A stretch of 64,000 nucleotides of DNA from NCBI GenBank assembly GCA_035637235.1, contig DASPXO010000245.1, positions 9,591 through 73,590 on the forward strand, written 5' to 3'. The notes under the pieces are model-generated. The model was not told where the DNA came from. It did no database searches and saw only the letters and a program-made list of their open reading frames with translations. Every line of letters starts with the position of its first letter. Positions within the stretch are counted from its first letter, which is position 1. Source of the stretch: Gemmatimonadales bacterium. GTDB lineage: Bacteria; Gemmatimonadota; Gemmatimonadetes; Gemmatimonadales; GWC2-71-9. The position numbers were made by a program, and so were the translations under genes. Shown here piece after piece: positions 34,491 to 52,258 of the stretch.

Positions 34491-34502
34491 GCTCAATTGT
34501 GC

Positions 34503-34528
34503 ACGTTGACCCGAGTTCGGGTCAACGT
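34503..34528. promoter_or_regulatory. Perfect 26-bp palindrome ACGTTGACCCGA-GT-TCGGGTCAACGT in the 65-bp ggt/murQ divergent gap
   Basis: Read directly. Each arm carries an outward-facing TTGACC hexamer. TAACTT lies 18 nt downstream on the murQ side and CACAAT 18 nt downstream on the ggt side. Confidence 0.6.
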
Positions 34529-34555
34529 CTAACTTGGGGCCACCCCGACCTCCTC

Positions 34556-35485
34556 ATGACCGCCCCCGACTTCCTCGACCCGCGCCTCACCGAGCAGCGC
34601 AACCCCCGGACCGAGCGCATCGACGTCGCCTCGACGCTGGAGATCGTCGACCTCATCAATACGGAGGACGCGGGCGTTCCGGGGGCGGTGCGCGGGGTGC
34701 GCGAGGAGATCGCGCGCGCGGTCGACCTCGTGGTGGCGGCGTTCCGCCAGGGCGGCCGGCTGGTCTACGTGGGGGCCGGCACGTCGGGCCGGCTCGGCGT
34801 GTTGGATGCGAGCGAGTGCCCGCCGACGTTCGGGACGCCGCCCGAGATGGTGGTCGGCATCATCGCCGGCGGCTCCCAGGCGCTCGTGAAGGGCCTCGAG
34901 GGAGCGGAGGACGACGTGAACGCCGGCATGGGGGCGATGGACACGGCGCGCGTCGCGCCGCGGGACTTCGTGCTCGGCATCGCGGCGAGCGGCACCACCC
35001 CGTTCGTGCGCGCGGCGCTGTCCCGCGCGCAGACGATCGGCGCCGTCACGGGCCTTCTCTCCTGCTCCGATCCCCCCAAGCAGCTCGCCGAGACGTGCGA
35101 CGTGCTGATCCTGCCCAAGGTCGGGCCCGAGGTGCTCACCGGGTCCACGCGGATGAAGGCGGGGACGGCCACCAAGCTCGTGCTCAACATGGTGTCGACC
35201 GGCGCGATGATCCGGATGGGCCGGGCCTACGGCAACCTGATGGTGGACCTGATGGCGTGGAGCGACAAGCTGCGGGATCGCGGCGAGCGCATCGTCATGG
35301 AGTGCTGCGGCGTGGACCGCCGGACCGCGCGGCAGGCGATCGAGGCCGCGGCGGGCAGCGTAAAGCTCGCGCTCGTGATGGTCGCGCAAGGGGTAGGGAA
35401 GACGGAGGCCGGGCGGCTGCTCGAGCAGGCGGGCGGGTTCGTGCGCCGCGCCGTGGGCGATCCGCCGCCCGTCCGGTCCCCGTGA
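34556..35485 (+). CDS. murQ: N-acetylmuramic acid 6-phosphate etherase
   Basis: TEQRNPRT..ID, GAGTSGRLGVLDASECPPTFG (SIS domain) and GSTRMKAGTATKLVLNM motifs. Confidence 0.9.
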   Translation: MTAPDFLDPRLTEQRNPRTERIDVASTLEIVDLINTEDAGVPGAVRGVREEIARAVDLVVAAFRQGGRLVYVGAGTSGRLGVLDASECPPTFGTPPEMVVGIIAGGSQALVKGLEGAEDDVNAGMGAMDTARVAPRDFVLGIAASGTTPFVRAALSRAQTIGAVTGLLSCSDPPKQLAETCDVLILPKVGPEVLTGSTRMKAGTATKLVLNMVSTGAMIRMGRAYGNLMVDLMAWSDKLRDRGERIVMECCGVDRRTARQAIEAAAGSVKLALVMVAQGVGKTEAGRLLEQAGGFVRRAVGDPPPVRSP

Positions 35486-36603
35486 CTGGCTGTCTCGCCG
35501 TCGGGCTGATGTCGGGCACGTCGCTCGACGGGGTCTCGACGGCGCTCGTGCGGCTGAGCGACGAGCCCCTGGACGTGCAGCTCGTCGCCTTCCGCCAGGA
35601 GCCTTACGCGAGGCACGAGCGCGGGCAGATCATCGACGCCATCGCCCGTGGGGGCTCGAAGGACTTGGCACTCCTGCATGTCGCGCTCGGCGAGCGATTC
35701 GCGGGCGCGGTGCTGGAGCTGCTCGCGCAGGCGAAGCTCGCTCCCAAAGACATCGCGTTCATCGCGTCGCACGGCCAGACGATCTGGCACGAGCCCGGTC
35801 GCGCCACGCTGCAACTCGGCGACCCGGCGGTGATCGCCGAGCGCGTGACGGCCCGCGTGGTGAGTGATTTCCGCTCGCGCGACGTGGCCGCGGGCGGGCA
35901 GGGGGCGCCGCTCGTGCCGCTCGCGGACGTCATGCTGTTCGGCCACCCGCAGCACGGCCGGCTGCTCCTCAACGTCGGCGGGATGGCGAACGTCACCTGG
36001 GTGCCGCGCCGGGGCGTGACGGACGGGGCGATCGCCTTCGATACCGGTCCTGGTGTCGCCGTGATCGACGCGGTGACCCGCCGGGTCGATCCGGAGGCGC
36101 CGTACGACCTGGACGGCGAGCGGGCGCGGCGCGGGAAGCCGCTGATGCAGGCGCTGGAGGCGCTCCTCGCCGATCCCTACTTCGAGCAGCGCCCACCCAA
36201 GAGCACGGGGCGGGAGCGCTTCGGGCTCGACTTCGCCGAGCGGCTGGTCGCGCTCGCGGAGCAGGGGGGCGGCTCCGACAATGACATGGTGGCGACGGCC
36301 ACCGCACTGACGGCCGAAACCATCGCCCGGGGCATCGAGCGCTGGACGCCCGCGGACACGGGGACCGAGCTGGTGATCTCGGGAGGCGGAGCCCGCAACC
36401 CGATGCTAGTCGAGCTGCTCGCCGCCCGCGTGCGCCCCCGGCCGGTGCTGGCGTTCGACCGGCTGTTCTTCGACGGCGAGGCGAAGGAAGCGGTGGTGTT
36501 CGCGTTTCTCGGCTACCTCACCCTGCAGGGACGGGCGGGGAACCTGCCGGCGGCGACGGGTGCCCGTGGCCCACGGGTCCTCGGCCACGTCACCCCGGCG
36601 TGA
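35482..36603 (+). CDS. anmK: Anhydro-N-acetylmuramic acid kinase
   Basis: GLMSGTSLDGV N-terminus, SHGQTIWH, NVGGMAN and GGGARNP motifs. GTGA overlap with the murQ stop. Confidence 0.88.
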   Translation: MTGCLAVGLMSGTSLDGVSTALVRLSDEPLDVQLVAFRQEPYARHERGQIIDAIARGGSKDLALLHVALGERFAGAVLELLAQAKLAPKDIAFIASHGQTIWHEPGRATLQLGDPAVIAERVTARVVSDFRSRDVAAGGQGAPLVPLADVMLFGHPQHGRLLLNVGGMANVTWVPRRGVTDGAIAFDTGPGVAVIDAVTRRVDPEAPYDLDGERARRGKPLMQALEALLADPYFEQRPPKSTGRERFGLDFAERLVALAEQGGGSDNDMVATATALTAETIARGIERWTPADTGTELVISGGGARNPMLVELLAARVRPRPVLAFDRLFFDGEAKEAVVFAFLGYLTLQGRAGNLPAATGARGPRVLGHVTPA

Positions 36604-38039
36604 CCAACCCGCTCGCCTCGCTCGTGTTCCCCGCGCTGCGCTGGCGGCGCGAGAGCTTCGACCACGAGCAGCCGAAGATCGACGCGGCGCTGGCGGCGGG
36701 GGTCGGCGGGTTCATCATCTTCGGGGGGACGCGCGCGACGGTCACCGCCCTCACGGGCGAGCTGCGCCGCCAGGCGGGACGGCCGCTCCTCATCGGGGCC
36801 GATCTCGAGCGCGGCGCCGCGCAGCAGGTGCAGGGGCTCACCGAGCTCCCACCCCCCGCCGCCCTGGGATTCCTCGACGACCTCGACGCGACCCACGCGG
36901 CCGGACTCATCACCGCGCGGGAAGCGCTCGACGTCGGCATCAACTGGGCGTTCGCGCCCGTGTGCGACCTCGACCTGGAGCCGCGGAACCCCATCGTGCA
37001 GACCCGCTCCTTCGGCGCGGACCCCGGGCGCGTGGGCGCGCACGCGGCGGTGTGGGTCCGCGGGCTCCAGGAGCACGGCGTCCTTGGCTGCGCCAAGCAT
37101 TATCCCGGCCACGGGCGCACCACCCGGGACTCGCACGAGACGCTGCCGCGGGTCACCACGCCCGCCGCCCTACTCCAGCAGGTGGACGTCGCCCCCTTTG
37201 AATACGCGATCCGGGCGGGCGTGGGAAGCGTGATGAGCGCGTTCGTCGCGTTTCCCGGCTGGGATCCATCCGGCCGGGCGGCGGGCTTCTCGCCGGAGAT
37301 CCTGGGCTATCTCCGCGACCCGCTCGACTTCGCCGGCCTCCTGGTGAGCGACGCGCTCATCATGGCGGGCGCGAGCGCCGCCCAGCCGGTTCCCGCCGCC
37401 ACGGTGACCGCGATCGCCGCGGGGTGCGACGCGCTGCTCTATCCCGAGGACTTCCGGAGCGTCGTGCGCGCGCTGGATCGCGCCGCCGGCTCCGAGATCC
37501 CGACCGCGCGCGTGGACGAGGCGCTGGCACGCTACGAGGACGCCCTCGCGGCCTGGGGTGCGGGCGCCGGCCAGGGTGCGCCGGATCTCGCGGCCCACGC
37601 CGCCTTCGCCGACGCGCTCGCCGATCGCGCGGTGCATCTGGTCCGCGGTGAGACGCCGGCGGTCCGCGCGCCCCTCGCCGTGTCGATCGTGGACGACGAC
37701 GTGGGCGGGCCGTACACCGTAGGGCCACGGGACGTTTTCACGCAGCAGCTCCGCGATGCCGGCGTTCCCGTTGCAACCGGGCAGCGGACACCGAGCACCG
37801 GTCACCGGGTGGTCCTCGTCTACGCCGAGCCGCGGTCGTGGAAAGGGCGGGCGAACCTCGGAGCCGGTTCCCTCGCCGCCCTGCGGCGGCGCGCGCCCGG
37901 GGCCGGGCTGGTCGTCCTGTTCGCGCACCCGCGGCTCGCGGCGCAGATCCCGGGACGGGCGCCGATCCTCTGCGGCTGGCACGGGCAGCCGCTGCTGCAG
38001 CGAGCCGCAGCGAGACGTCTCATGACGTGGTTGAGCTGA
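36600..38039 (+). CDS. nagZ: Beta-N-acetylhexosaminidase, glycoside hydrolase family 3 (NagZ-like)
   Basis: GGFIIFGG, NWAFAPVCDL, KHYPGHG and SDAL.M motifs. GTGA overlap with the anmK stop. Confidence 0.8.
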   Translation: MTNPLASLVFPALRWRRESFDHEQPKIDAALAAGVGGFIIFGGTRATVTALTGELRRQAGRPLLIGADLERGAAQQVQGLTELPPPAALGFLDDLDATHAAGLITAREALDVGINWAFAPVCDLDLEPRNPIVQTRSFGADPGRVGAHAAVWVRGLQEHGVLGCAKHYPGHGRTTRDSHETLPRVTTPAALLQQVDVAPFEYAIRAGVGSVMSAFVAFPGWDPSGRAAGFSPEILGYLRDPLDFAGLLVSDALIMAGASAAQPVPAATVTAIAAGCDALLYPEDFRSVVRALDRAAGSEIPTARVDEALARYEDALAAWGAGAGQGAPDLAAHAAFADALADRAVHLVRGETPAVRAPLAVSIVDDDVGGPYTVGPRDVFTQQLRDAGVPVATGQRTPSTGHRVVLVYAEPRSWKGRANLGAGSLAALRRRAPGAGLVVLFAHPRLAAQIPGRAPILCGWHGQPLLQRAAARRLMTWLS

Positions 38040-38097: not shown

Positions 38098-39477
38098 CTA
38101 TTTCACGAGCAGCCGGTCCAAGTACGCGACAACGTGGGCCGCGGGTACGCCGTAGATGATCCTCCCCTGCGACTCGCGGTTCCCGCCGTACAGCACTGCC
38201 ACCACACGCCCTTCGCGGTCGAAGATCGGGCTGCCCGATGAGCCCGGCGCCCCGTAGCCGTCCACCTGCACCACGTGGGGCAGCACCTTGCTCACCGTGC
38301 CGACGGTGAGCGTGGGGTCCGCCACCGCGGTCCGTCCCCGCTGTTCCATCGGGAGGTCCTCGCCCAGGGGGTAGCCGATGATGGCCACGGGATCGCCGCG
38401 CTCGAGGCCGTGGAGGTCGCGGGCGAAGCCGACCACTCGCGGCGTGCCGCCCCGGATCGCCACCCTCAGCACGCCGACGTCGGTCGTGTCGGCGGCGCCC
38501 ACGAACTGCGCCGGGAACCACTGCTCGCTGCCGGAGAACTTCACGGCGATGGCCTCGGGGCGACGGTCCCCCTGCTCGCCCGCCAGCACGTGCTTGTTGG
38601 TGACGAGCGTGCCCCCCGAGTCCACGGCGAAGGCGGTCCCGCCGACGATCTCGGCGTCCGAGAACTTGATGACCAGCAGCGCGACGGCGTCCTGGTTCCG
38701 TTGCGCGATGGACCGGTAGTCCACCGTCGCGGCGCCGGCGAGCCCGCGCTGACGCGCCTCGGCGGCGTCGAGCCGGGAGCGCAGCCGGGCCACGGAGCCC
38801 GCCGCGCCGCTGGAGCGCGCCGCCGCGAGCTCGCTGCGCAACCGAGCGACCTCGGCCTGCGACTGCTCGAGCACGCTTCGCAGGTTCGCCAGCTCCGCCT
38901 GGAAGCGCGACAGCAGCTGTTGTGTCCCGCGGGTGAGGCGGTCGGCGCGAGACTGCAGCCCGGCGACCGCGCGCGCGTCCCGGGCGCGCTGCCACTGGTC
39001 CCAGCCGAGGCCCACCAGCGCGACCGCCAGCAGGCCGACGAGCAGCTTGGTCGCGCGCCGCAGCCCTCGCGTCTGGCGCGCCACCTCCGCCGCGATCCGG
39101 AGCGCGGTGCTCGAGCGCCGCGGCGCCGCGACCGCCGGCGGCATCGCCTGGTCCGCGCCGGTCTCCGCGAGCACGATGCGGAACTCCACGGCGGGCCCCG
39201 TCTGCCCGAAGCCGATCACGTCGCCATCCTGTAGCTCGGCGTCGCCCGTGATGCGCTGGCCGTTGACGAAGGTCCCGTTCTTCGAGCCCAGATCGCGCAC
39301 GATGAAGCTGTCGGCCTGGCGCAGGATCGCGGCGTGGCGCGATGAGACATCGAGGTCCCGGTCCGCGTCGAAGTGGACGTCGGACAGGGGGTGGCGGCCG
39401 AGTTCGATGTACGGCTTGCGGAACGTCTCGACCTGACCGGCGCGCGCCCCCGACTGGAACGTGAACCGGACGGTCAC
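38098..39477 (-). CDS. FHA domain / single TM / coiled coil / trypsin-like (S1) serine protease fusion protein
   Basis: N-terminal FHA (GR....D......VSRHHA-like VSSRHAAI, DLGSKNGTFVNG). TM segment LLVGLLAVALVGLGW. Heptad-rich Arg/Leu/Ala segment. Protease triad candidates TNKHV, DVGVLRV and GAPGSSGSP. GTG start in a GTGA overlap with the PP2C stop. Confidence 0.8.
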   Translation of the reverse strand: MTVRFTFQSGARAGQVETFRKPYIELGRHPLSDVHFDADRDLDVSSRHAAILRQADSFIVRDLGSKNGTFVNGQRITGDAELQDGDVIGFGQTGPAVEFRIVLAETGADQAMPPAVAAPRRSSTALRIAAEVARQTRGLRRATKLLVGLLAVALVGLGWDQWQRARDARAVAGLQSRADRLTRGTQQLLSRFQAELANLRSVLEQSQAEVARLRSELAAARSSGAAGSVARLRSRLDAAEARQRGLAGAATVDYRSIAQRNQDAVALLVIKFSDAEIVGGTAFAVDSGGTLVTNKHVLAGEQGDRRPEAIAVKFSGSEQWFPAQFVGAADTTDVGVLRVAIRGGTPRVVGFARDLHGLERGDPVAIIGYPLGEDLPMEQRGRTAVADPTLTVGTVSKVLPHVVQVDGYGAPGSSGSPIFDREGRVVAVLYGGNRESQGRIIYGVPAAHVVAYLDRLLVK

Positions 39478-40505
39478 GGGCTCCGTGTGGCGAGGTAGAG
39501 CGCGACGGCGATTGCCGCCGCGGCGAGCAGGGCCACCGCGAGGACCCGCGAGCGCGCCGCCTTCGCGGGCACCGGCGGGCGGCTCCCCTTGTAGACGGGC
39601 ACCGGCTCCGTGCTCGTCTCGGTGTCGATCAGAGGGTAGATCTGGTGGCCCACGTCCTCGCTCGCCGCGGCGGCGGGCAACGCGTCTCCCTGGAACCGCG
39701 CGATGACGACGGTGATGTTGTCGGGGCCGCCGCGTTCGTTGGCGAGTGCAATCAACCGCTCGCAGGCGGCCCGCAGATCCCGCTCGCCGCTCGCGACCGC
39801 GGCGATCTCTTCCTTCTTAACCTGGCCGGAGAGGCCGTCGGAGCAGAGCACCAGCATGTCGCCCCGGCGGACCGCCTCGTGCGTGAGGACCACGTTCACC
39901 TTCGGATCCGGGCCCAGGGCCTGGAGGATGATGTTCCTCCGCTCGCTGTGGGCGGCCTCTTCCTCGGTCAGCTCACCCGCCTCCACCAGGCGCTGCATGA
40001 GCGACTGGTCCTTCGTGAGCTGGAACGCCCGGCCGTCGCGGACCAGATAGGCGCGGCTGTCGCCGACCTGCGTGAGGTAGAGGTGGTCGCCCAGCACCCC
40101 GACCGCGGTGGTCGTGGTGCCCATCCCGCGCAGCTCCGGGTGCGTCTTCGCATGCGCGTGAATGCGGGCGTTCGCGGCCTCGACCGCCTCCTTCAGCCGA
40201 TAGGCGAATCGCTGCGGCGTCGCTTGCCGTTCGGCCGTCCACACGCGGGCCATCTGGTCGTAGATCGTCTCGGTGGCCATCTCGCTCGCCAGTTCCCCCG
40301 CCGCGGCCCCACCCATCCCGTCGGCCACGATGAACAGGGATCCCCGCTCGCCCACCTCGTGCTCGCGCACCGCCGGCTGGAGCGACGCCTCCCGGTGCGT
40401 CAGGTCCGCGACGAGGAAGCGGTCCTCGTTGTGGTCGCGCGTGCGGCCGCGGTCGGTCTTGGCGAAGACCTGGACTCGAACCGGTTTGGGCGAGCGTCCG
40501 AACAC
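39474..40505 (-). CDS. PP2C-family Ser/Thr phosphatase with a C-terminal TM anchor
   Basis: TDRGRTRDHNEDRF, VADGMGG, LCSDGL and GGPDNITVV motifs. C-terminal VLAVALLAAAAIAVALYL. GTG start at 40505, 1 nt after the kinase TAG. Confidence 0.85.
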   Translation of the reverse strand: MFGRSPKPVRVQVFAKTDRGRTRDHNEDRFLVADLTHREASLQPAVREHEVGERGSLFIVADGMGGAAAGELASEMATETIYDQMARVWTAERQATPQRFAYRLKEAVEAANARIHAHAKTHPELRGMGTTTTAVGVLGDHLYLTQVGDSRAYLVRDGRAFQLTKDQSLMQRLVEAGELTEEEAAHSERRNIILQALGPDPKVNVVLTHEAVRRGDMLVLCSDGLSGQVKKEEIAAVASGERDLRAACERLIALANERGGPDNITVVIARFQGDALPAAAASEDVGHQIYPLIDTETSTEPVPVYKGSRPPVPAKAARSRVLAVALLAAAAIAVALYLATRSP

Positions 40506-40506
40506 G

Positions 40507-42048
40507 CTAGGGGCAGCCCTGATCGCGCTTGAACGTGAGGTAGCTCTCGTTGGCCGGCGCCAACCCCAGGGCGAGCCCGTTCCAGCGACAGGCTTCCTCC
40601 TTGTGCCGCTCGATGAACAACCCTTGCGCCACCATGAACGCGGCCTGGGCGCGGAGCCGCGTCGGGACGTCGGAGTTGTTGTAATACATCGTCGCCCGAC
40701 GGCGCCCGTCCTCCGCCGTGGCCGGATCCAGCACGAGTTCGACGATGCTCCCGAGGTCTCGATCGACGGCCGCGCTGTCCACGTGCTGCGGCGCGGTCGC
40801 GATGCGCTGCCGGGCGGGGGACGGCGTCGCCCGCAGCGGTCGCTCTGCGCCCTCCACCGGATTGCCGCCGACCCGTGTCGTCGTGTCGGGGCGGGCGGCG
40901 CCGTCGGTCTGCCGGCCCCCGCCCAACACCGCCACCGCAGCCCCGCCGCCGCCCAGGACCGCGACGGCACCCAGGATGATCGGCACGCGGGAGCGGCGGC
41001 GCGTGGCCGAGTCCGGACGGGGCGCGGGGCGCTCGAGCACCTGCGTCTTCTCCTCGCCCCCGCGCGTCGTGGGGAGGGGAGCAAGCGGCCCGACCCCGCG
41101 CTGCAGGCCGGCGACGCTCGCCACGTCGTTGACGAATTTGGCGACTGATTGATAGCGCTCCGCGGGACTGCGCGTGAGCGCGGCGTCGATCGTCTGCTGG
41201 AGGCCCGGGGGAAAGCGCAGGTCGGGCCGCGCCGCACCCAGCGGGAGCGGCTCGTCGGTGAGGCGCTTGAGCATCGTCTCCTGCACCGTGGTTGCCTCGA
41301 ATGGCAGCGTCCCCGTCAGCATCTTGTACAGCACGAGCGCGAGCGAGTAGATGTCGCTCCGCCCGTCGACCTTGTCACCCGAGAGCTGCTCCGGGCTCAT
41401 GAACTCCGGGGTCCCCACGACGAGGCCGGTCCTCGTCACCATCTGGCTGGCGTCGCCGCCCACCGCTTTCGCGATCCCGAAGTCCACGACCTTCACCAGG
41501 TCGGACCCGTCGCGCCCGCGGGAGAGCATGATGTTATCGGGCTTCAGGTCCCGGTGCACGATCCCGAGGTCGTGCGCCGCCTGCAGAGCGCCCCCCACCT
41601 GGACGAAGGCGGCGACCGAGCGGGCGACCGGCAGCACGCCCTCGCGCTGGAGCACGTCGGTGAGCGACTCGCCCTCGATGAACTCCATGGCCAGGTAGAT
41701 GAGCCCCTCGGGTGTTTCGCCGAAGTCGTAGACCGCGCAGACGTTGGGATGCGTGATGCGGCTGGCGTTCGCGGCCTCACGGTTGAAGCGCGCCACCGCG
41801 TCCGGGTCGTGCACCAGCGCGCGCTTCATGACCTTGATGGCGCTCTTTCGGCCCATCTTCACGTGCTCGCCGAGGTACACCTGGCCCATCCCGCCTTCGC
41901 CGACCTTCTTCAGCACGTGGTAGCGGTCCGCCACCACCTGCCCGACGAGGTCGTCGGGCGGCGACGCGGCGCGCAACGTCTGGCCGTCGCTGGGGCAGAA
42001 GCGCACGTCGTCGGGGTACTGGGTCGAGCAGACGGGGCAGATCTTCAC
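40507..42048 (-). CDS. Hanks-type Ser/Thr protein kinase with an N-terminal zinc ribbon, a TM segment and a ~110-aa C-terminal outer domain
   Basis: CPVCS...FCPSDG; GEGGMGQVY, AIKV, HRDLKPDN, DFGIAK and SPEQ motifs. TM PIILGAVAVLGGGGAAVAVLGG. GTGA overlap with the upstream stop. Confidence 0.9.
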   Translation of the reverse strand: MKICPVCSTQYPDDVRFCPSDGQTLRAASPPDDLVGQVVADRYHVLKKVGEGGMGQVYLGEHVKMGRKSAIKVMKRALVHDPDAVARFNREAANASRITHPNVCAVYDFGETPEGLIYLAMEFIEGESLTDVLQREGVLPVARSVAAFVQVGGALQAAHDLGIVHRDLKPDNIMLSRGRDGSDLVKVVDFGIAKAVGGDASQMVTRTGLVVGTPEFMSPEQLSGDKVDGRSDIYSLALVLYKMLTGTLPFEATTVQETMLKRLTDEPLPLGAARPDLRFPPGLQQTIDAALTRSPAERYQSVAKFVNDVASVAGLQRGVGPLAPLPTTRGGEEKTQVLERPAPRPDSATRRRSRVPIILGAVAVLGGGGAAVAVLGGGRQTDGAARPDTTTRVGGNPVEGAERPLRATPSPARQRIATAPQHVDSAAVDRDLGSIVELVLDPATAEDGRRRATMYYNNSDVPTRLRAQAAFMVAQGLFIERHKEEACRWNGLALGLAPANESYLTFKRDQGCP

Positions 42049-43103
42049 GCCGGGATCTCGACGCGCAGCAGCTTGTCGCCGACCAGGATCCGCGAGCCGT
42101 GGCGCAGGGGGATGTCGCCGCGCGCGGCGAGCGCGATACCGTTGCGACTGTTCGCGTCCACGACCACGAAGTCGGCGTCCTGGGAGCGGACGGTCGCGTG
42201 GCGCGCGCTCATCGACGGATCGTACGAGAAGGTCCAATCACCCTGCTCGCGGCCGATCGCGATGTCGCGGCCGGGGGAGAGCTGGACCACGTCCCGGGCG
42301 CTGCCGTCGGAGCGCAGCTGGGTGAGGCTCGCGATGTCGGCGCTGGGAATCAGGCTGCCTATGCGCTTGGTCTGGTCGGCGTCCGGGGCGTGCGGCCCGG
42401 GATACCCGAGGCGGCGGAAGCGGATCACCTGGGAGCCGACCAGCAGCAGGTCGCCCTCCACGAGACGGTGCGGCGCCTCGAGGAACACCCAGGTCCCGTT
42501 CCGGCTGCCGAGGTCGCGCACCACGAGCGCCTCCCGCTCCCACGAGAGCTTCGCGTGCAGCGGGGAAAGGAACACGTCGTCGGGGAAGCGGATGTCGCCC
42601 TCCTGCCGGCCGATCGTCGTGTCGGAGGCGTGACGCTCGAAGCGTTGGGTCGGGTTGCCACGGTCGTCGAGCAGCACGAGGACCAGCGTCGCGCCGGCTC
42701 GCTGGCTCGACGGGCCTTGGGACGCGGCGCGCCGCAGGCCGGCTGTGTCGCCGAGCAGCCCCCCGCACGTCGCGCAGTACTTCACCCCCGCCGGGACCGC
42801 TGATCCGCAGCGACCGCAGCACGGCCCGGAGCCGGGCGCGGTCAGCCGCCGGCCACAGTGGGGGCAGAAGGGAAGCAGCCCGTTGGCAGGGCTGCCGCAG
42901 AACGGGCAGGTGACGGCCTCGGGGTTTCTGGCGCCCACCGGCCGTGGCGCCGCAACCCGCGTGCCAGGCACTGCACGGCCCGCCGCCGCGGGTGCCACCG
43001 CTGCGGCCTTGGATCCCGTGGCCTGGCGCATGGGTTTGCCGCAATCCATACAGAACCGGGCGCCGGGGTCGTTGTCGCGGCCGCAGGAGGCGCAGGCCGT
43101 CAC
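42045..43103 (-). CDS. Triple zinc-ribbon, double FHA-domain protein
   Basis: CASCG..FCMDCG, CPFCG..FCPHCG and CGRCG..YCATCG, then two FHA-like modules (IGRQEGDIRF...SPLHAKL...DLGSRNGTWV, and IGREQGDW....MSARHATV....DANSRNGI). Confidence 0.8.
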   Translation of the reverse strand: MTACASCGRDNDPGARFCMDCGKPMRQATGSKAAAVAPAAAGRAVPGTRVAAPRPVGARNPEAVTCPFCGSPANGLLPFCPHCGRRLTAPGSGPCCGRCGSAVPAGVKYCATCGGLLGDTAGLRRAASQGPSSQRAGATLVLVLLDDRGNPTQRFERHASDTTIGRQEGDIRFPDDVFLSPLHAKLSWEREALVVRDLGSRNGTWVFLEAPHRLVEGDLLLVGSQVIRFRRLGYPGPHAPDADQTKRIGSLIPSADIASLTQLRSDGSARDVVQLSPGRDIAIGREQGDWTFSYDPSMSARHATVRSQDADFVVVDANSRNGIALAARGDIPLRHGSRILVGDKLLRVEIPA

Positions 43104-43159
43104 TAAAGGAGGTGCTCCACAAGCGAGCGAAGTTACGGTGTGCCAATCTATTCAGCAAA

Positions 43160-43189
43160 TTGACGGGTTGAAAGGGCCAATGCTAGCTT
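43160..43189 (+). promoter_or_regulatory. Putative promoter TTGACG-18-TAGCTT overlapping the annotated amidase ATG
   Basis: Counted directly. If it is real, transcription would begin about 43195-43198 and the GTG at 43198 would be a leaderless start. Confidence 0.3.
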
Positions 43190-45084
43190 GCGCGCCTGTG
43201 CGATCGCTCGGCCTCGCAGTCTCCGTGCTGGCGGCGACCGCGTGCGCGAGTGGCCGCAGCGGGGCCGCTCCGGCCCCGGCCGCTGCCCCCCGGGCCCTCC
43301 TCGCGCCCGTGCGGGAATCCCTGCACGTCGACGTCGTCTACCCCGGTCCCAGCGATGTCATCGAAGCCCACGACTCGTCGTTCCTGTACGGGGCGGTGCG
43401 GGGCGGCGCGCGACCCGACAGCCTCGCCGTCAACGGCATGTCCGTGCCCGTCCTCGCGACCGGGGCGTGGATCGCGTGGGTCGCGCTCCCCGACGACACG
43501 ATCGCCTCCTTCCGTCTCGTGGCTCGCGCCGGAGGCGATTCCGCGGTGCAGATCTTCGCCGCGCGCATCGCGCCGCGCTTCCGCCCCCCCGACGGCGCGG
43601 CGTGGGTCGACACGACGAGTTTCGCACCGGCGGGCACGCTCGCGCTGCCCGCGGGTGAGGGCATCCGGCTCGCGGTCCGCGCGGCGCCCGGGGCCAGCGT
43701 GCGGTTGCGGCTCCCCTGGGGCGCCACTGTCGCGTTCGTGCCCGACACGTTGCCCGGCGAGCCCGCCTGGGGGGTGCGCGCCTTCGCCACGACCGCCGCG
43801 GCGTACCGGCTGCCGCCCGCGCCCGACCGCTACGCCGCGTGGCTCCCTGCCGCGGCGCTGTGCGCGGACGGACAGACCGCCTGCGCGATGCTCGAGGTCG
43901 TCGCCGGTTCGGACACCGCGAGCGCCCGGTGGCCGCTCAGCGTCGGCCTCGTGGACCTGGCGTTCCCCACCGTCGTGGTACTCAACGACGATACCGCCCA
44001 CGTCGGCACCACCGACAGCATGACGACGGGGAAGGCGGTGCCCGGCGGCACCTACAACTGGTTCTTCCCCACGGGCACGACGGCCGTGCTGTCGGGACGC
44101 TGGAACGATCAGGTGCGGCTGCAACTGTCACGGGGCGCGGTGGCGTGGGTGAACGCAGCGGACGTCGTGCCCCTCCCCGCGGGCACGCCGCCGCCCGGCG
44201 GCGTGGTTGGCTCGGTGCGCCTCGAGCCGCGACCGGCCGCCGTCACGCTGCGGGTGCCGCTGCCCGCGAAGCTGCCGTTCCAGGTGACGGAGCAGGAGCG
44301 GAGCCTCACGCTGCGGATCTACGGCGCGGGGTCGGACATCAACTGGATGCAGTACGGCGGGACCGATCCCCTGGTGGCCCGGATGAGTTACGCCCAACCG
44401 GCCGCGGACGAGGTGACGATCGGCGTGGAGCTGTCGCGGCGCGTGTGGGGCTACCGCACGCGCTTCGAGGGGCGCGACCTGCTGCTGGAGATCCGCCGTC
44501 CGCCCGAGATCGATCGCAACCGCCCGCTCAAGGGGCGCACCATTGTGCTCGATCCGGGTCACCCTCCCGCCGGCGGCAAGGGACCGACCGGCCTGCGAGA
44601 GCCGGTGGCGACGCTGGCGGTCGCCGTCAAGGCGAAGGCCTTGCTCGAGCGGGCGGGCGCCACGGTCCTGCTGACACGCAGCGGCGCCGCGCCCGTTGAC
44701 CTGTACCCGCGTACCCGCTTCGCCGAGCAGCACGATGCTGACGTGCTCGTCTCGATCCACGCGAACGCCCTCCCCGACGGCGTGAACCCGTTCGTCAGCA
44801 ACGGCACGAGCGTGTACTACTTCCACCCGCGCAGCGCGCCGCTCGCCCGCGAGCTGGACCGCGCGCTCGTGGCCGAGCTGGGCGTGCGCGACCTTGGCAT
44901 GGGACGGGGGGACTACGCGGTGGCGCGCCCGACGTGGATGCCCGCGGCGCTCACCGAGGGGCTCTTCATCATGATGCCGGAGCAGGAAGCAATGCTCCTC
45001 TCCGAGGCCGGGCAGTGGCGGTACGCGCGGGGCGTGGCGCGGGGCATTGAGAACTTCCTGCGGGATCGGGCGCGGGAGCCGTGA
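43180..45084 (+). CDS. Lipoprotein with a large N-terminal domain and a C-terminal N-acetylmuramoyl-L-alanine amidase (Amidase_3) domain
   Basis: Signal and lipobox LAVSVLAATAC. C-terminal IVLDPGH, SIHANA, GTSVYYF and EGLFI motifs typical of AmiA/B/C-type amidases. Alternative start GTG 43198. Confidence 0.8.
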   Translation: MLACAPVRSLGLAVSVLAATACASGRSGAAPAPAAAPRALLAPVRESLHVDVVYPGPSDVIEAHDSSFLYGAVRGGARPDSLAVNGMSVPVLATGAWIAWVALPDDTIASFRLVARAGGDSAVQIFAARIAPRFRPPDGAAWVDTTSFAPAGTLALPAGEGIRLAVRAAPGASVRLRLPWGATVAFVPDTLPGEPAWGVRAFATTAAAYRLPPAPDRYAAWLPAAALCADGQTACAMLEVVAGSDTASARWPLSVGLVDLAFPTVVVLNDDTAHVGTTDSMTTGKAVPGGTYNWFFPTGTTAVLSGRWNDQVRLQLSRGAVAWVNAADVVPLPAGTPPPGGVVGSVRLEPRPAAVTLRVPLPAKLPFQVTEQERSLTLRIYGAGSDINWMQYGGTDPLVARMSYAQPAADEVTIGVELSRRVWGYRTRFEGRDLLLEIRRPPEIDRNRPLKGRTIVLDPGHPPAGGKGPTGLREPVATLAVAVKAKALLERAGATVLLTRSGAAPVDLYPRTRFAEQHDADVLVSIHANALPDGVNPFVSNGTSVYYFHPRSAPLARELDRALVAELGVRDLGMGRGDYAVARPTWMPAALTEGLFIMMPEQEAMLLSEAGQWRYARGVARGIENFLRDRAREP

Positions 45085-47954
45085 GAATGCGGATTGCGGA
45101 TTGCGGATTGCGGATTGCGGATTGCAGAGGCGGGCGTCGCTACGCAAACGACCTTCCCCGGCAATTCCGCATTCCGCATTCCGCATTCCGCATTCTTTTT
45201 CTCCTGTTCCTCGTCGGTCGAGCGGAAGCTCAGATTGATCCGTCCGGCAGCTGGCGCACGCTGCACACCCTGCACTTCCGCATTCACTTCCGCCCCGGCT
45301 ACCGGGACGTCGCATTCCTGGCGGCGCGGGAGGCGGAGCGCGCGTACGGGCTGCTCGCCTCGGAGCTGCAGCCGCCACGCCAAACCGTCGACCTCACGCT
45401 GGTGGACGATTTCGACGCCGCGAACGGCGCCGCTACGGTGTTTCCCTCGGACCGCATCTACGTCCTGCTTCCTCCGCCCGCGAGCGATCCCGGGCTGCAG
45501 CACTACGACAGCTGGCTGCGGCTCGTGACGACGCATGAGCTGACGCACGTCTTCCATCTCGACCGCGTGCGGCGCTTCTGGAGGACGCTGCAGGGCGTCT
45601 TCGGCCGGGTGCCGGGGCTGTTCCCGAACGAGTATCAGCCCAGCTGGGTGATCGAGGGGCTGGCGGTCTACTACGAGTCGAAGTTCACCAACGGCGGGCG
45701 GGTGAAGGGGAGCTTCCACACGCAGGTGCTCGCCGCCGACCGCGCCGGCGGGGTGTCGCGGGGGCCCTGGGAAGCGCTCCTGTTCACGCGCTGGGCCGAC
45801 GGCTTCGTCCCCTACGCCTACGGCGGCCGCTTCATTCATTATCTCGCGGACGCGGCAGGGGACTCCGTGGTGCCGCGGCTCGTCGAGGCGACCTCGGGGC
45901 AGCTGATTCCGTTTCGCGTCGGCCGGCAGATCCGGCGGGTGGCGACCGGGCGGACGCTGCCGCAGGAATGGCCGAAAGCCACGGCCCTCGAGCCGCAGCC
46001 GGGAGCCGTGCCGGCGCGCGGCGCGCGGGTGCTCGACGGCGAGCTGCGCACCGAGCCCGTGCCTCGCGTGTCGCCGGACGGCGGCCGGGTCGCGTACCTG
46101 CGAGACGACGGGAAGGGCGCGCGGGAGCTGCGCGTGCTCGATGCCGCGAGCTTCCGCGTGCTGCGGCGGCACCGCGTCAACGCTGCGGTGAGCTACGATT
46201 GGTTGGGCGACACGCTGGTCGTGGCCCAGCTCGACTGGACGTCTCGCTGGCGGGTGCGAAGCGATCTGTACCAGTGGCGGCCCGGGGGGGAATGGCGCCG
46301 GGTCACGCGCGGCGCGCGGCTGGTCGAGCCGGGGGGAGGCGGGGGCAGGCTGTCCGCCATCCGGCTGGTGGCGGCCGGGAACCGCCCGGAGCCGGCGGGC
46401 CCGGCGGGCCCGGCGGGAGCGACGTGGGGCGCGGTCGCGGCTTCCCCCGACGGGCGCCGCGTTGCGGGCACCCGGAACGCGGACGGCCATTGGGCGCTGC
46501 TGCGCTGGCCGGCCGACTCCCCCGGCGCGGCTGTGGTGTTGCAGGCGTCGCGCGGCGTCATCTCCGATCCGGTGTGGACGCCCGCGGGCGAGCTGCTGTT
46601 CGTCGCTGATCCGACGGGATTCCCGCAGGTGTACGGCTGGCACGATGCCTCGGGGGCCGAGCCGCTCACCGCCGAGCCGCTGGGCGCCCGCGCGCCCGCG
46701 GCGCTGCCCGACGGGACGCTCCTGTACGCGACGCTCTCGTCCCGCGGCTGGGAGCTCCGGCACGCGCCGGCGGAGGCCGGCGGCGTCCCGGCCGCGTTCG
46801 CTGCGCCGCCACCGTTCGATTCCGCGCCGCCCGCGCGGGTGCGCGAGACCGGCTACGCCGCGTGGCCCTCGCTGCGACCGCACTTCTGGGTGCCCCTGTT
46901 TCTCGACGCGGGACCGAGCGGACGGTTCGTGGGGGGCGCCACGGCGGGAACGGACGCCGTGGGGCGCTCCGCCTACTTCGCCGCGGGTCTCGTGGCACGC
47001 GACCCCTTCCGCGTCGTCGGCTCGGTCGCCGGCAGGTGGAGCGGTCTCGGCAATCCCACGCTCGACGTCTCCGCTTCGACCACCTGGGAGGACGTCCGCG
47101 CCGGCGTCACGCTCTCGGAGCGTGACCAGGACGCCGCCGTGGGAGCGACGGTGGTGGCGCGGCGCTGGCGCACGCTCGCGAGCGTGCGCGTCGCGGGCGA
47201 ATTCGAGGGCACGCGTTTCGTGACCATGCCCGACACGTCGCTCGCCGCGGTGTGTGCGGGCTGCGAAGACCAGGACCTCGTCGGTGGATCCGTCACCGCG
47301 GGGCTGTCGCACGTCGTGACCGCGCCGCTCGCCGTGTCGCCTCAGAACGGCCTCGTCTGGTCGGCCACGTATCGCCGCCGGGACGAGCAGGGGAGCCCCC
47401 GGTTTTCGAACGAAGTCCGTTCCCGGCTCGGTCTGTACGCCCGGATCCCGGGACTCGGCGGCTTCGCCCACCACGTGCTCGCGCTGCGGCTTGCGGCCGG
47501 GGCGACCGGCGGGCCGCTGGGCTCGCGTCTCAAGGTCGGCGGGGTCTCCTCGAGCAGCGTGGATCTGGCCATCGGGCAGTCGCTCGGCGGGGCGCGCGCG
47601 TTCCCCGTGCGCGGCTATCGGGGCGGGGAGCTGCGCGGCCGGCGGGCGGCGACCGCGACCCTCGAGTACCGGCTGCCGCTCGCGCTCGTCGGGAAACCGC
47701 TCGGCCATCTCCCGTTCGGCGCCGACCGACTGTGGCTCAACGTGTTCGGCGACATCGGGGACGCGTGGGACCCGGGTGCCGAGCCGCGCTTCACGCGGCT
47801 GCGCTCGACCGGGCTCGAGCTCGCGGGTGACCTCACGATCGGCTATGACGTGCCGTTGCAGATCCGGCTCGGCCTGGCGCAACCGCTCGCCGATCCGCCG
47901 TCCGGCGCCGCCCGGCGCCCGCAGGCGTACCTGGCGCTGGCGTCGGACTTCTGA
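45081..47954 (+). CDS. Outer-membrane protein with an HExxH metallopeptidase-like domain, PD40/TolB-like beta-propeller repeats and an Omp85/surface-antigen-type C-terminal beta-barrel
   Basis: VTTHELTHVFH zinc motif. SPDGGRVAYL and SPDGRRVAG PD40-like repeats. C-terminal alternating beta-strand pattern ending YLALASDF (terminal aromatic). Hydrophobic stretch ILFLLFLVGRAEA-Q around residue 40. No canonical start exists downstream of the heptamer repeats, so the start is uncertain. Confidence 0.65.
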   Translation: MRMRIADCGLRIADCRGGRRYANDLPRQFRIPHSAFRILFLLFLVGRAEAQIDPSGSWRTLHTLHFRIHFRPGYRDVAFLAAREAERAYGLLASELQPPRQTVDLTLVDDFDAANGAATVFPSDRIYVLLPPPASDPGLQHYDSWLRLVTTHELTHVFHLDRVRRFWRTLQGVFGRVPGLFPNEYQPSWVIEGLAVYYESKFTNGGRVKGSFHTQVLAADRAGGVSRGPWEALLFTRWADGFVPYAYGGRFIHYLADAAGDSVVPRLVEATSGQLIPFRVGRQIRRVATGRTLPQEWPKATALEPQPGAVPARGARVLDGELRTEPVPRVSPDGGRVAYLRDDGKGARELRVLDAASFRVLRRHRVNAAVSYDWLGDTLVVAQLDWTSRWRVRSDLYQWRPGGEWRRVTRGARLVEPGGGGGRLSAIRLVAAGNRPEPAGPAGPAGATWGAVAASPDGRRVAGTRNADGHWALLRWPADSPGAAVVLQASRGVISDPVWTPAGELLFVADPTGFPQVYGWHDASGAEPLTAEPLGARAPAALPDGTLLYATLSSRGWELRHAPAEAGGVPAAFAAPPPFDSAPPARVRETGYAAWPSLRPHFWVPLFLDAGPSGRFVGGATAGTDAVGRSAYFAAGLVARDPFRVVGSVAGRWSGLGNPTLDVSASTTWEDVRAGVTLSERDQDAAVGATVVARRWRTLASVRVAGEFEGTRFVTMPDTSLAAVCAGCEDQDLVGGSVTAGLSHVVTAPLAVSPQNGLVWSATYRRRDEQGSPRFSNEVRSRLGLYARIPGLGGFAHHVLALRLAAGATGGPLGSRLKVGGVSSSSVDLAIGQSLGGARAFPVRGYRGGELRGRRAATATLEYRLPLALVGKPLGHLPFGADRLWLNVFGDIGDAWDPGAEPRFTRLRSTGLELAGDLTIGYDVPLQIRLGLAQPLADPPSGAARRPQAYLALASDF
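45088..45195. repeat. Heptamer tandem-repeat inverted structure, (TGCGGAT)x5 ... (ATTCCGC)x4
   Basis: Left block 45088-45122, right block 45164-45195, about 40-nt spacer. As RNA the arms pair 6 of 7 per heptad, with one U-U mismatch. Lies at the very 5' end of the 45081-47954 ORF. Same GCGGATT heptad as the 19400-19481 element. Confidence 0.9.

Positions 47955-50311: not shown

Positions 50312-52230
<1,919 letters not shown>

Positions 52231-52258
<28 letters not shown>

Follow-up and report, generated by a model that had tools for sequence, protein, structure and literature searches.

In this study, we examined a set of four minus-strand genes, g1-g2-g3-g4, whose open reading frames span positions 38098-43103 of the window, by which we mean the whole 64,000-nucleotide stretch of DNA analysed here (Table 1). 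An earlier note on this DNA had described the genes as overlapping in GTGA or lying 1 nt apart, and the gene limits and the junction sequences agree with this: start and stop codons overlap in GTGA at g1/g2 and at g3/g4, and a single nucleotide separates g2 from g3 (TAG-C-GTG). The same 4-nt overlaps were seen again in the gene calls of relatives. A GGAG sequence lies approximately 12 nt upstream of the GTG start of g1, in the intergenic region between g1 and a divergent Amidase_3 gene; no sigma-70 consensus promoter was found in this region, nor was a promoter or terminator consensus found that would delimit the transcript of the cassette. The placement between murQ-anmK-nagZ and an Amidase_3 lipoprotein that the note had proposed is upheld as well. 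The peptidoglycan-recycling genes (34499-38039, plus strand) lie downstream of the cassette and are convergent with it, and the Amidase_3 protein has a signal peptide followed by Cys (...LAATAC) and is a probable lipoprotein. Its next approximately 450 aa are without a Pfam match and are followed by a C-terminal N-acetylmuramoyl-L-alanine amidase domain.

Table 1. Features of the cassette and of its neighbourhood; nucleotide positions are those of the window
Feature	Position	Strand	Size, basis or remark
murQ-like SIS etherase	34499-35485	+	Pfam GKRP_SIS_N
anmK	35485-36603	+	Pfam AnmK, E 4e-97
GH3 nagZ	36600-38039	+	Pfam Glyco_hydro_3, E 1e-60
g4	38098-39477	-	459 aa
g4 HtrA-like protease	aa 265-459; nt 38101-38685	-	triad H296/D333/S414
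g4 helical stalk	aa 161-264; nt 38686-38997	-	AlphaFold2 model
g4 TM	aa 143-160; nt 38998-39051	-	hydropathy, single
g4 T136-x-x-L139	nt 39061-39072	-	conserved linker motif
g4 FHA domain	aa 1-102; nt 39172-39477	-	Pfam FHA
g3	39474-40505	-	343 aa
g3 C-terminal TM	~aa 319-340 of 343; nt 39486-39551	-	hydropathy
g3 pre-TM block YPLIDTETSTEPVPVY, holding T299-E-P-V302	nt 39600-39611 (T299-E-P-V302)	-	conserved
g3 catalytic domain	aa 16-271	-	PP2C
g2	40507-42048	-	513 aa
g2 tail, predicted periplasmic	nt 40510-40917	-	136 aa, residues after TM
g2 TM	~aa 356-377; nt 40918-40983	-	hydropathy, single TM
g2 juxtamembrane T335-x-x-L338	nt 41035-41046	-	conserved linker motif
g2 kinase domain	aa 43-310	-	Hanks-type Ser/Thr
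g1	42045-43103	-	352 aa
g1 FHA domains, two, canonical	~aa 140-232 and 268-350	-	Pfam FHA
g1 zinc ribbons, three CxxC...CxxC	aa 4-113; nt 42765-43094	-	Pfam DZR, Zn_Ribbon_1
Divergent intergenic region, g1/Amidase_3 gene	43104-43179		76 bp, sequence read
Amidase_3 protein	43180-45084	+	634 aa; divergent from g1; Amidase_3 E 5.6e-30 at aa 455-625

The FHA, Trypsin_2, PP2C and Pkinase domains that had been expected in the four proteins were all detected, and the architectures ascribed to the first three were recovered. For g1, described as a triple zinc-ribbon protein with two FHA domains, residues 4-113 match DZR/Zn_Ribbon and two stretches match FHA (E 3.8e-20), both of which on inspection carry the GR/SxxH/NG residues; the protein is predicted to be a soluble cytoplasmic adaptor. 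For g2, described as a Hanks kinase with a zinc ribbon, one TM segment and a short outer domain, Pkinase matches at 43-265 (E 2.4e-48), and GEGGMG, AIK, HRDLKPDN, DFG and SPE are kept at a level of at least 90% in 80 orthologues. The N-terminal Zn_Ribbon_1 match is below threshold (18 bits against a Pfam cut-off of 25), and CxxC...C residues back the assignment. The predicted periplasmic domain appears small and fast-evolving: a database search with the ectodomain alone returned only two relatives, alignments reached it in close orthologues only, and no known sensor family was matched in Pfam or in the database search. A PASTA domain was not found in g2, for which the PknB_PASTA model gave 311 against a cut-off of 450. 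The PP2C phosphatase with a C-terminal TM anchor, g3, matches PP2C_2/PP2C and exceeds the cut-off of the Stp1/IreP model (238.6 bits against 230); with its conserved RDHNED, DGMGG, SDG and GGPDN motifs and its hydropathy profile, it can be classed from sequence as a tail-anchored Stp1-type PP2C phosphatase.

The fourth protein had been proposed to combine an FHA domain, one TM segment, a coiled coil and an S1 protease with His/Asp/Ser in TNKHV, DVGVLRV and GSSGSP, and these elements were found in this order. Pfam places FHA at residues 25-91 (E 4e-19) and Trypsin_2 at 280-428 (E 3.5e-21). In the AlphaFold2 model (mean pLDDT 75; approximately 90 in the FHA domain), the protease is preceded by a long helix with the TM segment inside it (127-223) and by two further helices (226-250 and 254-264), and confidence is low for linker residues 105-131 and stalk residues 170-189; conserved hydrophobic residues of the stalk, at 3-4-7 spacing in the alignment of relatives, fit a coiled coil. 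Mycobacterium tuberculosis HtrA1, the best sequence match among solved structures, aligns with g4 around the triad (TNKHV/TNNHV, TDVGVLRV/TDLAVLKV and GSSGSP/GNSGGP, g4 given first), and Foldseek matched the model to the protease domains of DegS, HtrA1 and DegP with TM-scores of 0.75-0.84 (E ~1e-13). Both the triad (H296, D333 and S414) and the FHA residues G27, R28, S45, H48 and N67 are invariant in 34 relatives with 63-93% identity, and the triad is kept in nearly all relatives with 31-48% identity. Neither Pfam nor AlphaFold2 gave a PDZ domain in g4, and the chain ends directly after the protease domain. HtrA/DegS-type proteases act outside the cytoplasm. No N-terminal signal peptide was found in g4, which has one TM segment only, and in its family the N-terminal TM flank is the more positive one in 103 of 113 members (mean net charge +3.2, against +1.3 for the C-terminal flank). 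Together with the HtrA/DegS-like fold, these features point to an N-in/C-out topology, in which the FHA domain is predicted to lie in the cytoplasm and the protease in the periplasm, as the earlier note had it.

Among the species-representative genomes scanned, all 139 loci that match the g4 protease family belong to Gemmatimonadota. Synteny was counted in such genomes of Gemmatimonadales, Longimicrobiales and Gemmatimonas, using for the main clade the loci with enough flanking sequence, and the co-conservation of the four genes that had been anticipated is strict: the gene immediately upstream of g4 encodes PP2C in 93/93 loci, the kinase gene lies upstream of g4 in 75/76 and g1 is present in 68/72, being absent from deep-branching loci. 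The co-conservation holds down to 34-45% g4 identity, and the position of the cassette is stable, syntenic and chromosomal across the phylum. The suggestion that a cell-wall-related output is plausible fared less uniformly. An Amidase_3 gene lies upstream in 39/63 loci, and is directly divergent from the kinase gene even in loci where g4 is only approximately 40% identical (L106); downstream, 53/75 loci have anmK or murQ and 38/75 have nagZ. Paralogous cassettes elsewhere dilute this link. One MAG holds a second cassette beside sugar-metabolism genes and without cell-wall neighbours (L037), and a separate group of nine loci, which clusters in a neighbour-joining tree without bootstrap support, is arranged as TssM (IcmF)-small protein-kinase-PP2C-FHA-protease-TPR/CsgG-like lipoprotein, with PP2C undetected in two of the nine. 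A link of the cassette to the cell wall is only moderately supported, as frequent and not universal.

In orthologue alignments, a near-invariant T-x-x-(L/I/V/M) stands out in an otherwise variable linker of each of the four proteins. In g1, it lies between the FHA domains in an invariant D-A-T245-K-R-M-G-S stretch, with T245 and an M/I/L at +3 each kept in 69/69 orthologues. T335 of g2 is kept in 78/80 orthologues (L/I/M at +3 in 71/80), T299 and V302 of g3 in 91/93 each, and T136 and L139 of g4 in 90/93 and 101/113, respectively. These motifs, which were chosen after inspection of the alignments and are of a kind common by chance, are candidate FHA docking sites.

We hold, with about even confidence, that the cassette is a membrane-bound phosphothreonine (pThr) signalling module with a periplasmic protease as its output, the place or timing of which is set by pThr docking. 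We infer that the g2 kinase would write pThr marks and the tail-anchored g3 phosphatase would erase them, probably on the T-x-x-(L/I/V/M) motifs, which in g2, g3 and g4 lie in the cytoplasmic linker next to the membrane and in g1 in the linker between the FHA domains. The marks would be read by the FHA pair of g1 and by the FHA domain with which g4 begins in the cytoplasm, all three canonical, and docking of the g4 domain may lead to recruitment, clustering or oligomerization of the bitopic protein, whose coiled-coil stalk would position its serine protease, of the HtrA/DegS type but without PDZ, in the periplasm. The balance of kinase and phosphatase would then set where or when envelope proteolysis takes place, as an inside-out signal; if true, protein cleavage in the cell envelope of Gemmatimonadota would be under phosphorylation control. 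The leading candidate for the substrate, to which we give low confidence by itself, would be a protein that remodels the envelope, for instance the Amidase_3 lipoprotein of the divergent gene, by analogy with mycobacterial membrane-anchored periplasmic S1 proteases that degrade or process peptidoglycan hydrolases, where HtrA-LppZ opposes Ami3, an amidase, and RipA is cut by MarP (PMC6538288). In our case, the amidase gene is a divergent neighbour and its product a putative target or partner of g4; the mycobacterial proteases, unlike g4, have neither an FHA domain nor a dedicated kinase/phosphatase pair, and the MarP model gives 39 bits against a cut-off of 250. DegS shares with g4 an N-terminal membrane anchor, a periplasmic chymotrypsin-fold protease and the same triad; however, where HtrA (S1C) proteases are regulated through one or more C-terminal PDZ domains that sense periplasmic peptides, g4 instead carries FHA in the cytoplasm and a long stalk.

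The genes of the type VI threonine-phosphorylation pathway (PpkA, PppA and Fha/TagH) likewise bring together a one-TM Hanks kinase, a PP2C and an FHA reader, and in Agrobacterium type VI secretion is switched on when Fha docks on pThr14 of the inner-membrane protein TssL (PMC3953482). With this precedent, the cassette could instead gate the assembly of an envelope-spanning apparatus, with the FHA-protease as a structural or processing accessory rather than a regulated protease in its own right; in the clade of the window, the apparatus would have to be encoded elsewhere or be of unknown kind. We regard this as unlikely, even though TssM adjoins one clade of the g4 family, the N terminus of g4 passes Yop-YscD_cpl (PF16697) with 42.9 bits (cut-off 33.2), TagH (VI_FHA) and GltG models match it weakly, and in at least one divergent family member (P0270) the catalytic His and Ser have been lost, such that not every member depends on proteolysis and the protein may serve as a scaffold. 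The soluble scaffold Fha/TagH has neither a TM segment nor a protease, whereas g4 has both, and the TagH model stays at 35-39 bits (cut-off 120). Furthermore, tblastn with TssM gave no match in the 64-kb window, the neighbours in the main clade are cell-wall enzymes rather than secretion genes, and the invariant triad in the clade of the window argues that catalysis matters there. The type III inner-ring proteins YscD/MxiG/EscD share the layout of g4 (cytoplasmic FHA fold, one TM segment, periplasmic domain), but their periplasmic part consists of ring-building structural domains, and their FHA folds are generally held to be degenerate for pThr binding, whereas the FHA domain of g4 keeps all canonical residues.

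The wiring might also run outside-in, with the periplasmic protease acting on the kinase ectodomain or on its periplasmic ligand, and so tuning the kinase rather than being tuned by it, and with the FHA domain only holding the protease by the active, autophosphorylated kinase. Protease and ectodomain share a side of the membrane, their genes are always linked, the ectodomain evolves fast and T335-x-x-L is a plausible FHA dock. Nevertheless, we consider such feedback improbable: nothing in the data analysed points to kinase cleavage, the adaptor g1 and the conserved motifs in the phosphatase and the protease would be left unexplained, and the conservation of amidase and outer-membrane-protein genes nearby speaks for external substrates. 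An anti-phage or abortive-infection system, in which a defence-type Ser/Thr kinase acts with a protease effector, is very improbable. The kinase domain scores 304 bits with the PADLOC PD-T4-6 models and 223 bits with mad6, and the protease domain weakly matches RT-Protease_XI (48 bits); however, these matches span generic kinase and protease folds only, g1 has no PADLOC match and that of g3 is marginal (19.5 bits), and the stable spot among housekeeping cell-wall genes throughout the phylum is contrary to what a mobile defence island would show. Mere adjacency of four genes without functional coupling, with which the missing transcript signals would agree, deserves next to no credence given the start/stop overlaps, the co-occurrence down to approximately 35% g4 identity and the pairing of FHA-TM-protease genes with kinase genes outside the g4 family; the synteny counts effectively refute functional independence.

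That last pairing is an independent recurrence, which we count in favour of the pThr signalling module. The uncharacterized proteins P0235, P0280, P0282 and P0371, outside the g4 family, have the architecture (FHA)2-3-TM-Trypsin with one TM segment between FHA and protease, and Pkinase genes neighbour the latter three, the contigs of which were looked up. With several FHA domains per chain they need no separate adaptor, whereas g4 has one; the set shows one faint PDZ match and only distant sequence kinship to g4. In agreement with the earlier note, our literature searches found no characterized FHA-TM-trypsin protein; a 2008 survey merely lists an FHA-FHA-Tryp architecture in Bacteroides thetaiotaomicron NP_811686.1, which likewise has FHA N-terminal to a trypsin-fold protease (PMC2605481).

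Two further systems show related designs. The actinobacterial division/cell-wall cluster FhaA-FhaB(FipA)-PstP-RodA-PbpA-PknA-PknB combines FHA proteins, one of which (FipA) is tethered to the membrane, with a membrane-anchored PP2C and TM Hanks kinase(s) in a single conserved operon linked to peptidoglycan growth. It differs in phylum and gene order and is without a protease fusion; PknB reads muropeptides via PASTA repeats, which g2 lacks, and the FhaB model gives 54-56 bits against a cut-off of 125. Rv1747 follows the same design logic as g4, with cytoplasmic FHA domains fused to a membrane effector and encoded beside the regulating Hanks kinase PknF (PMC3138270). Its effector, however, is an ABC exporter where g4 has a protease, and the operon is not known to include a PP2C. 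Many FHA-ABC proteins were also present in our FHA homologue set.

In this analysis, we examined the four genes of the cassette, referred to here as g1 (zinc-ribbon/double-FHA adaptor), g2 (Hanks kinase), g3 (PP2C phosphatase) and g4 (FHA-TM-coiled-coil-S1 protease), together with their counterparts in relatives. ORF calls, junction sequences, Pfam and NCBIfam searches and hydropathy analysis agreed in every detail with the gene layout, junctions, domains and flanking genes described in the earlier note, and HMM searches matched all of the FHA, S1 protease, PP2C and Pkinase domains that it had named. The window has a G+C content of approximately 72 % and the genes are tightly joined: the stop codon of g1 overlaps the start of g2 in a GTGA, as that of g3 does with the start of g4, and a 1-nt gap separates g2 from g3 (TAG-C-GTG). 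Overlaps of 4 nt recur in the gene calls of relatives. A promoter/terminator consensus scan found no promoter; the only site resembling a terminator lies within g3 on the other strand and was not counted as real.

Cassette genes and neighbouring features in the window
Feature	Position	Strand	Length	Description
Inverted heptamer arrays	19405-19476			similar to those at 45088-45195
murQ-like SIS gene, anmK, nagZ	34499-38039	+		convergent with the cassette
Cassette g1-g4	38098-43103	-		four ORFs (ORF calls)
g1		-	352 aa	double/triple zinc-ribbon matches at aa 4-113 and two FHA domains (Pfam/NCBIfam)
g1/g2 overlap	42045-42048			GTGA
g2		-	513 aa	Hanks kinase domain; N-terminal zinc ribbon (sub-threshold Pfam match, 18 bits)
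g3		-	343 aa	PP2C, above the Stp1/IreP equivalog cut-off
g3/g4 overlap	39474-39477			GTGA
g4		-	459 aa	FHA at 25-91, Trypsin_2 at 280-428 (Pfam)
Amidase_3 gene	43180-45084	+		divergent from the cassette
HExxH/PD40 protein gene	45081-47954	+	957 aa	downstream of the amidase gene
Heptamer arrays	45088-45195			just past the amidase stop codon
Gene without Pfam match	48006-50255	+	749 aa	downstream of the HExxH/PD40 protein gene
Second Hanks kinase gene	50312-52258	+		approximately 7 kb from the cassette

The two FHA domains of g1 together scored 72.5 bits (PF00498 cut-off 20.7), and GR...S(P/A)xH...SRNG is present in both. The kinase g2 is a Hanks-type Ser/Thr kinase (PF00069, 165 bits) with one transmembrane (TM) segment at approximately 356-377 by hydropathy, and its GEGGMG, AIK, HRDLKPDN and DFG motifs are kept in 80 orthologues. 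No PASTA repeats were detected in g2 with Pfam or NCBIfam, which sets it apart from the PknB/Stk1 PASTA kinases; NF033483 aligned with the kinase part only (36-351) and scored 310.8 bits against a cut-off of 450. The periplasmic tail of the kinase is poorly conserved beyond close orthologues and matched no known sensor domain in Pfam or the database search, and the ectodomain alone (aa 337-513) retrieved only two relatives. The phosphatase g3 scored 238.6 bits with the Stp1/IreP PP2C model NF033484 (cut-off 230), its RDHNED, DGMGG, SDG and GGPDN motifs are conserved in the orthologue alignment, and it has, in addition to what is found in Stp1/IreP, a C-terminal TM anchor (approximately 319-340 of 343; hydropathy). 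The metal-binding motifs of the phosphatase and the kinase motifs are kept across 80-93 orthologues.

The protein that distinguishes the cassette is g4, whose family carries no database annotation beyond 'FHA domain-containing protein' or 'S1-C subfamily serine protease'. Its FHA domain is of the pThr-binding type (69 bits against the PF00498 cut-off of 20.7), G27, R28, S45, H48, N67 and G68 are invariant or near-invariant in family alignments, and the canonical pThr-contact residues are retained in all three FHA domains of the cassette. The Trypsin_2 match (PF13365; 76.9 bits, cut-off 27.6) identifies a PA-clan S1 protease, and the His/Asp/Ser triad that had been thought plausible is well founded, as H296, D333 and S414 each fall on the corresponding residue of M. 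tuberculosis HtrA1 and do not vary among 34 relatives. In Foldseek comparisons with the protease domains of DegS, HtrA1, HtrA3 and DegP, TM-scores of 0.75-0.84 were obtained (E approximately 1e-13), the fold thus being that of the HtrA-type (S1C) proteases. However, HtrA proteins are defined by a PDZ domain, for which Pfam gave no match in g4, and the chain ends 4 residues past the last protease helix and therefore has no C-terminal PDZ domain. The degP_htrA_DO, DegS and HhoA models gave 16-37 bits against cut-offs of 416-450 (DegP and DegS models alone, 16-34 bits against 416-423). Nor is g4 a member of the MarP family (NF033740; 39 bits against 250), a criterion of which is four N-terminal TM helices, whereas g4 has one, at approximately 143-160 by hydropathy. 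The AlphaFold2 model of g4 (mean pLDDT 75) consists of an FHA domain predicted with confidence, a linker of low confidence, a helix at 127-223 that includes the TM segment, two further helices reaching residue 264, and the protease domain; conserved leucines of the stalk have a coiled-coil-like 3-4-7 spacing. The N terminus leads directly into an FHA beta-strand, with no signal peptide, and the N-terminal TM flank is more positive than the C-terminal one in 103 of the 113 family members (mean net charge +3.2 and +1.3, respectively). HtrA-type proteases act outside the cytoplasm. Taken together with the single TM segment, the lack of a signal peptide and the flank charges, this predicts that the FHA domain of g4 is inside and the protease outside, in agreement with the topology proposed in the earlier note.

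Close homologues of g4 (60-92 % identity) all combine FHA and Trypsin_2, and those with a named source are from metagenome bins of Gemmatimonadetes/Gemmatimonadales. When 1.84 billion representatives were searched exhaustively with HMMER, 314 clusters reached E<=1e-30, many of them full-length at 31-48 % identity to g4. Genome scans, covering one genome per GTDB species, were run with alignment-based queries; g4 alone gave only two spurious partial matches, and a divergent 30-sequence alignment (A2) was too heterogeneous for a pattern scan, but a 9-sequence subset of it worked. The scans found 113 and 26 loci, and those with names are all from Gemmatimonadota (Gemmatimonadales, Longimicrobiales and Gemmatimonas). 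When window proteins were mapped by tblastn onto the main-clade loci, and only loci with enough flank were counted, the protease gene was directly preceded by the PP2C gene in 93/93, a kinase gene occurred in 75/76 and g1 in 68/72, so that the gene order is indeed co-conserved in relatives. Deep-branching loci such as L106 lack g1 and retain the kinase-PP2C-FHA-protease order, with Amidase_3 still divergent from it; judged by gene order, the conserved core is therefore the kinase, PP2C and FHA-protease, and g1 is a widespread addition. One divergent family member, P0270, keeps the FHA domain, TM segment and Trypsin_2 fold, has TTRRVV in place of the catalytic His and ASAGSP as the Ser motif, and is probably a pseudo-protease. 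The cassette can be regarded as a near-universal, phylum-specific trait of Gemmatimonadota. While its domains are individually ordinary, their combination is new, conserved phylum-wide and uncharacterised: a predicted cytoplasmic pThr reader and PDZ-less periplasmic HtrA-like protease with a kinase and phosphatase of its own and sometimes a double-FHA adaptor. A literature search on FHA with serine protease, HtrA, type VI secretion or Gemmatimonadetes found no characterised FHA-TM-protease, as had been supposed; the sole mention was in a 2008 survey of architectures, which lists an FHA-FHA-Tryp protein of Bacteroides thetaiotaomicron without characterisation (PMC2605481).

The cassette lies between genes of peptidoglycan cleavage and recycling. 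The murQ-like SIS gene, anmK and the GH3 gene nagZ are downstream, and the Amidase_3 gene, 76 bp from g1, encodes a product with a signal peptide followed by Cys. In main-clade loci, Amidase_3 was found in 39/63 (51/63 if an adjacent HExxH/PD40 outer-membrane protein is accepted instead), anmK or murQ downstream in 53/75, and nagZ in 38/75. However, the MAG DASYRJ01 has two paralogous main-clade g1-kinase-PP2C-FHA-protease cassettes, one (L073) adjoining anmK/murQ and the other (L037) beside a GFO/IDH/MocA oxidoreductase and a 3-keto-disaccharide hydrolase. Because of the latter cassette and a group of relatives linked to the type VI secretion gene tssM, the cell-wall neighbourhood is, by these counts, frequent and old but not obligatory. 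The earlier suggestion of a cell-wall-related output thus gains moderate support as a common association and not as a fixed one.

Bacterial modules of Hanks kinase, PP2C and FHA proteins are known to regulate division, type VI secretion and the synthesis of the cell wall, and in the cases known to us they act on cytoplasmic or membrane targets. The cassette resembles in its working the actinobacterial FhaA-FipA-PstP-PknA/B cluster and the type VI threonine-phosphorylation pathway, in which Fha binds pThr14 of TssL (PMC3953482), and it also resembles FHA-fused membrane effectors such as Rv1747/PknF. It belongs to neither of the matching families, scoring 35-39 bits against 120 with TagH (VI_FHA; TIGR03354) and, over the FHA domain only, 54-56 bits against 125 with FhaB/FipA (NF049868). 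The difference is that here an FHA reader is joined, by way of a single membrane helix and a stalk, to a protease predicted to lie across the membrane.

The usual FHA ligand pattern is pT-x-x-hydrophobic, and a non-globular linker of each of the four cassette proteins holds one T-x-x-(L/I/V/M) that is near-invariant in alignments. These are, in the kinase juxtamembrane region, T335 (78/80; L/I/M at +3 in 71/80); in the pre-TM block YPLIDTETSTEPVPVY of the PP2C, T299 and V302 (91/93 each); in the protease, T136 (90/93 non-gap sequences) and L139 (101/113); and between the FHA domains of g1, T245 with M/I/L at +3 (both 69/69). As the motifs were chosen after the alignments had been inspected, they are candidates only for FHA docking sites. 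We propose that the kinase would write pThr on such linkers and the phosphatase erase it, that the FHA domains of g1 and g4 would bind the marks, and that this binding would recruit or oligomerise g4, so that where or when g4 cleaves in the periplasm would track the phosphorylation state. We give this model as a whole an even chance of being correct, and the kinase/phosphatase control of extracytoplasmic proteolysis envisaged in the earlier note is supported as far as computation reaches. HtrA proteases are usually switched by PDZ-sensed peptides and oligomerisation, and the cytoplasmic FHA domain of g4 would fill this regulatory place. If true, this would be a direct path from Ser/Thr phosphorylation to periplasmic proteolysis and a new HtrA-type regulation, with a cytoplasmic FHA domain replacing a periplasmic PDZ domain.

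The best candidate substrate would be an enzyme that remodels the envelope, for instance the divergently encoded Amidase_3 lipoprotein, a doubtful guess that we base on two precedents: in mycobacteria, HtrA-LppZ works against the amidase Ami3, and the hydrolase RipA is cut by MarP (PMC6538288). More tentatively than the general model, FHA-pThr docking might assemble the coiled-coil stalks of g4 from the inside and so switch the protease on, whereupon it would degrade or process the Amidase_3 lipoprotein or another envelope enzyme. Kinase signalling would thereby be coupled to peptidoglycan cleavage and recycling, and a paralogous copy would serve type VI secretion likewise. This would be the first case in which bacterial Ser/Thr phosphorylation directly gates extracytoplasmic proteolysis. 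Gemmatimonadota are abundant soil bacteria with cultured members and we know of no work on their envelope biology; lying beside peptidoglycan amidase and recycling genes, the cassette could therefore be an entry point to the control of their cell-wall turnover.

The relatives linked to type VI secretion bear on a different explanation. A neighbour-joining tree of the 113 family members, which has no support values and gives no ancestral context (cell wall or type VI secretion), clusters nine loci as a TssM-linked group. The type VI secretion core gene for TssM/IcmF is directly upstream in six of them (L089, L092, L093, L100, L105 and L114), in the order TssM, a conserved protein of approximately 180 aa without a Pfam match, kinase, PP2C and FHA-protease (e.g. 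L089:357-9119), and a TPR/CsgG-like lipoprotein follows the FHA-protease; two of the nine, L099 and L100, gave no PP2C match. To judge from its gene content, this set appears to be a Gemmatimonadota version of the type VI threonine-phosphorylation pathway that has not been described before. The existence of this clade, and the loss of both the catalytic His and Ser in P0270, would fit a scaffold role of the cassette in a secretion or envelope machine, on the model of that pathway. However, linkage to a type VI core gene holds in the TssM-linked clade only, tblastn found no TssM in the window, which is without type VI secretion genes, and the triad is invariant in the window's own clade; a scaffold role is therefore unlikely.

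The wiring could also run from outside to inside, with the protease trimming the kinase ectodomain or its ligand, which we consider rather improbable. An anti-phage defence system is a very remote prospect: the PADLOC matches reflect no more than the generic folds of a kinase and a protease, and we rejected the idea because the locus lies in a core region that is stable and syntenic. That the four genes are adjacent by chance is refuted by the synteny counts and scarcely credible. Regulated periplasmic proteolysis remains the reading that we prefer.

Proteins of (FHA)2-3-TM-Trypsin architecture also occur outside the g4 family, namely P0235 and the products of L115:7001-8983, L116:7001-8962 and L117:7001-8971, one with a faint PDZ match. 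A Hanks kinase (Pkinase) gene adjoins the protease gene in L115-L117, the three contigs checked, and overlaps it by 4 nt in L116. On domain matches and gene order, the pairing of an FHA-tethered, putatively periplasmic S1 protease with a kinase extends beyond the g4 family. A genome scan with P0235, a 3×FHA-protease, gave no match; the alignment of its additional FHA domains with g1 is weak (29 % identity, E 2e-8), and it was therefore not counted as evidence of a g1-g4 fusion. Among the FHA homologues of P0235 are many Rv1747-like FHA-ABC transporter fusions of approximately 1000-1200 aa, mostly, where named, from Acidobacteriota (Pyrinomonadaceae and Blastocatellia), and coupling an FHA domain to a membrane effector seems to be a widespread arrangement among soil phyla.

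Several further features lie beyond the amidase gene. The 957-aa protein has a HELTH (HExxH) motif, a weak PD40 beta-propeller match and the ending ...LASDF typical of outer-membrane beta-barrels, and may be an outer-membrane metalloprotease; many loci have its gene in synteny with the cassette. At the position of the 749-aa gene, L003/L004 likewise has a 749-aa gene without a recorded Pfam match. The second Hanks kinase has an N-terminal zinc ribbon, PEGA and a C-terminal TonB_C domain, and L005 and L007 have a kinase with Zn_Ribbon and TonB_C matches in the corresponding position. The heptamer arrays past the amidase gene are perfect, (TGCGGAT)x5.4 and the near-inverted (ATTCCGC)x4.6, with nine heptamer matches in the window against 0.04 expected; on the contig shared by L004 and L017 the same array separates the amidase gene from the PD40-like gene, and L015 has it as well. 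These arrays could represent a hairpin element of the REP type; if the start of the outer-membrane protein at 45081 is correct, the 7-nt repeats would be coding and could give rise to phase variation.
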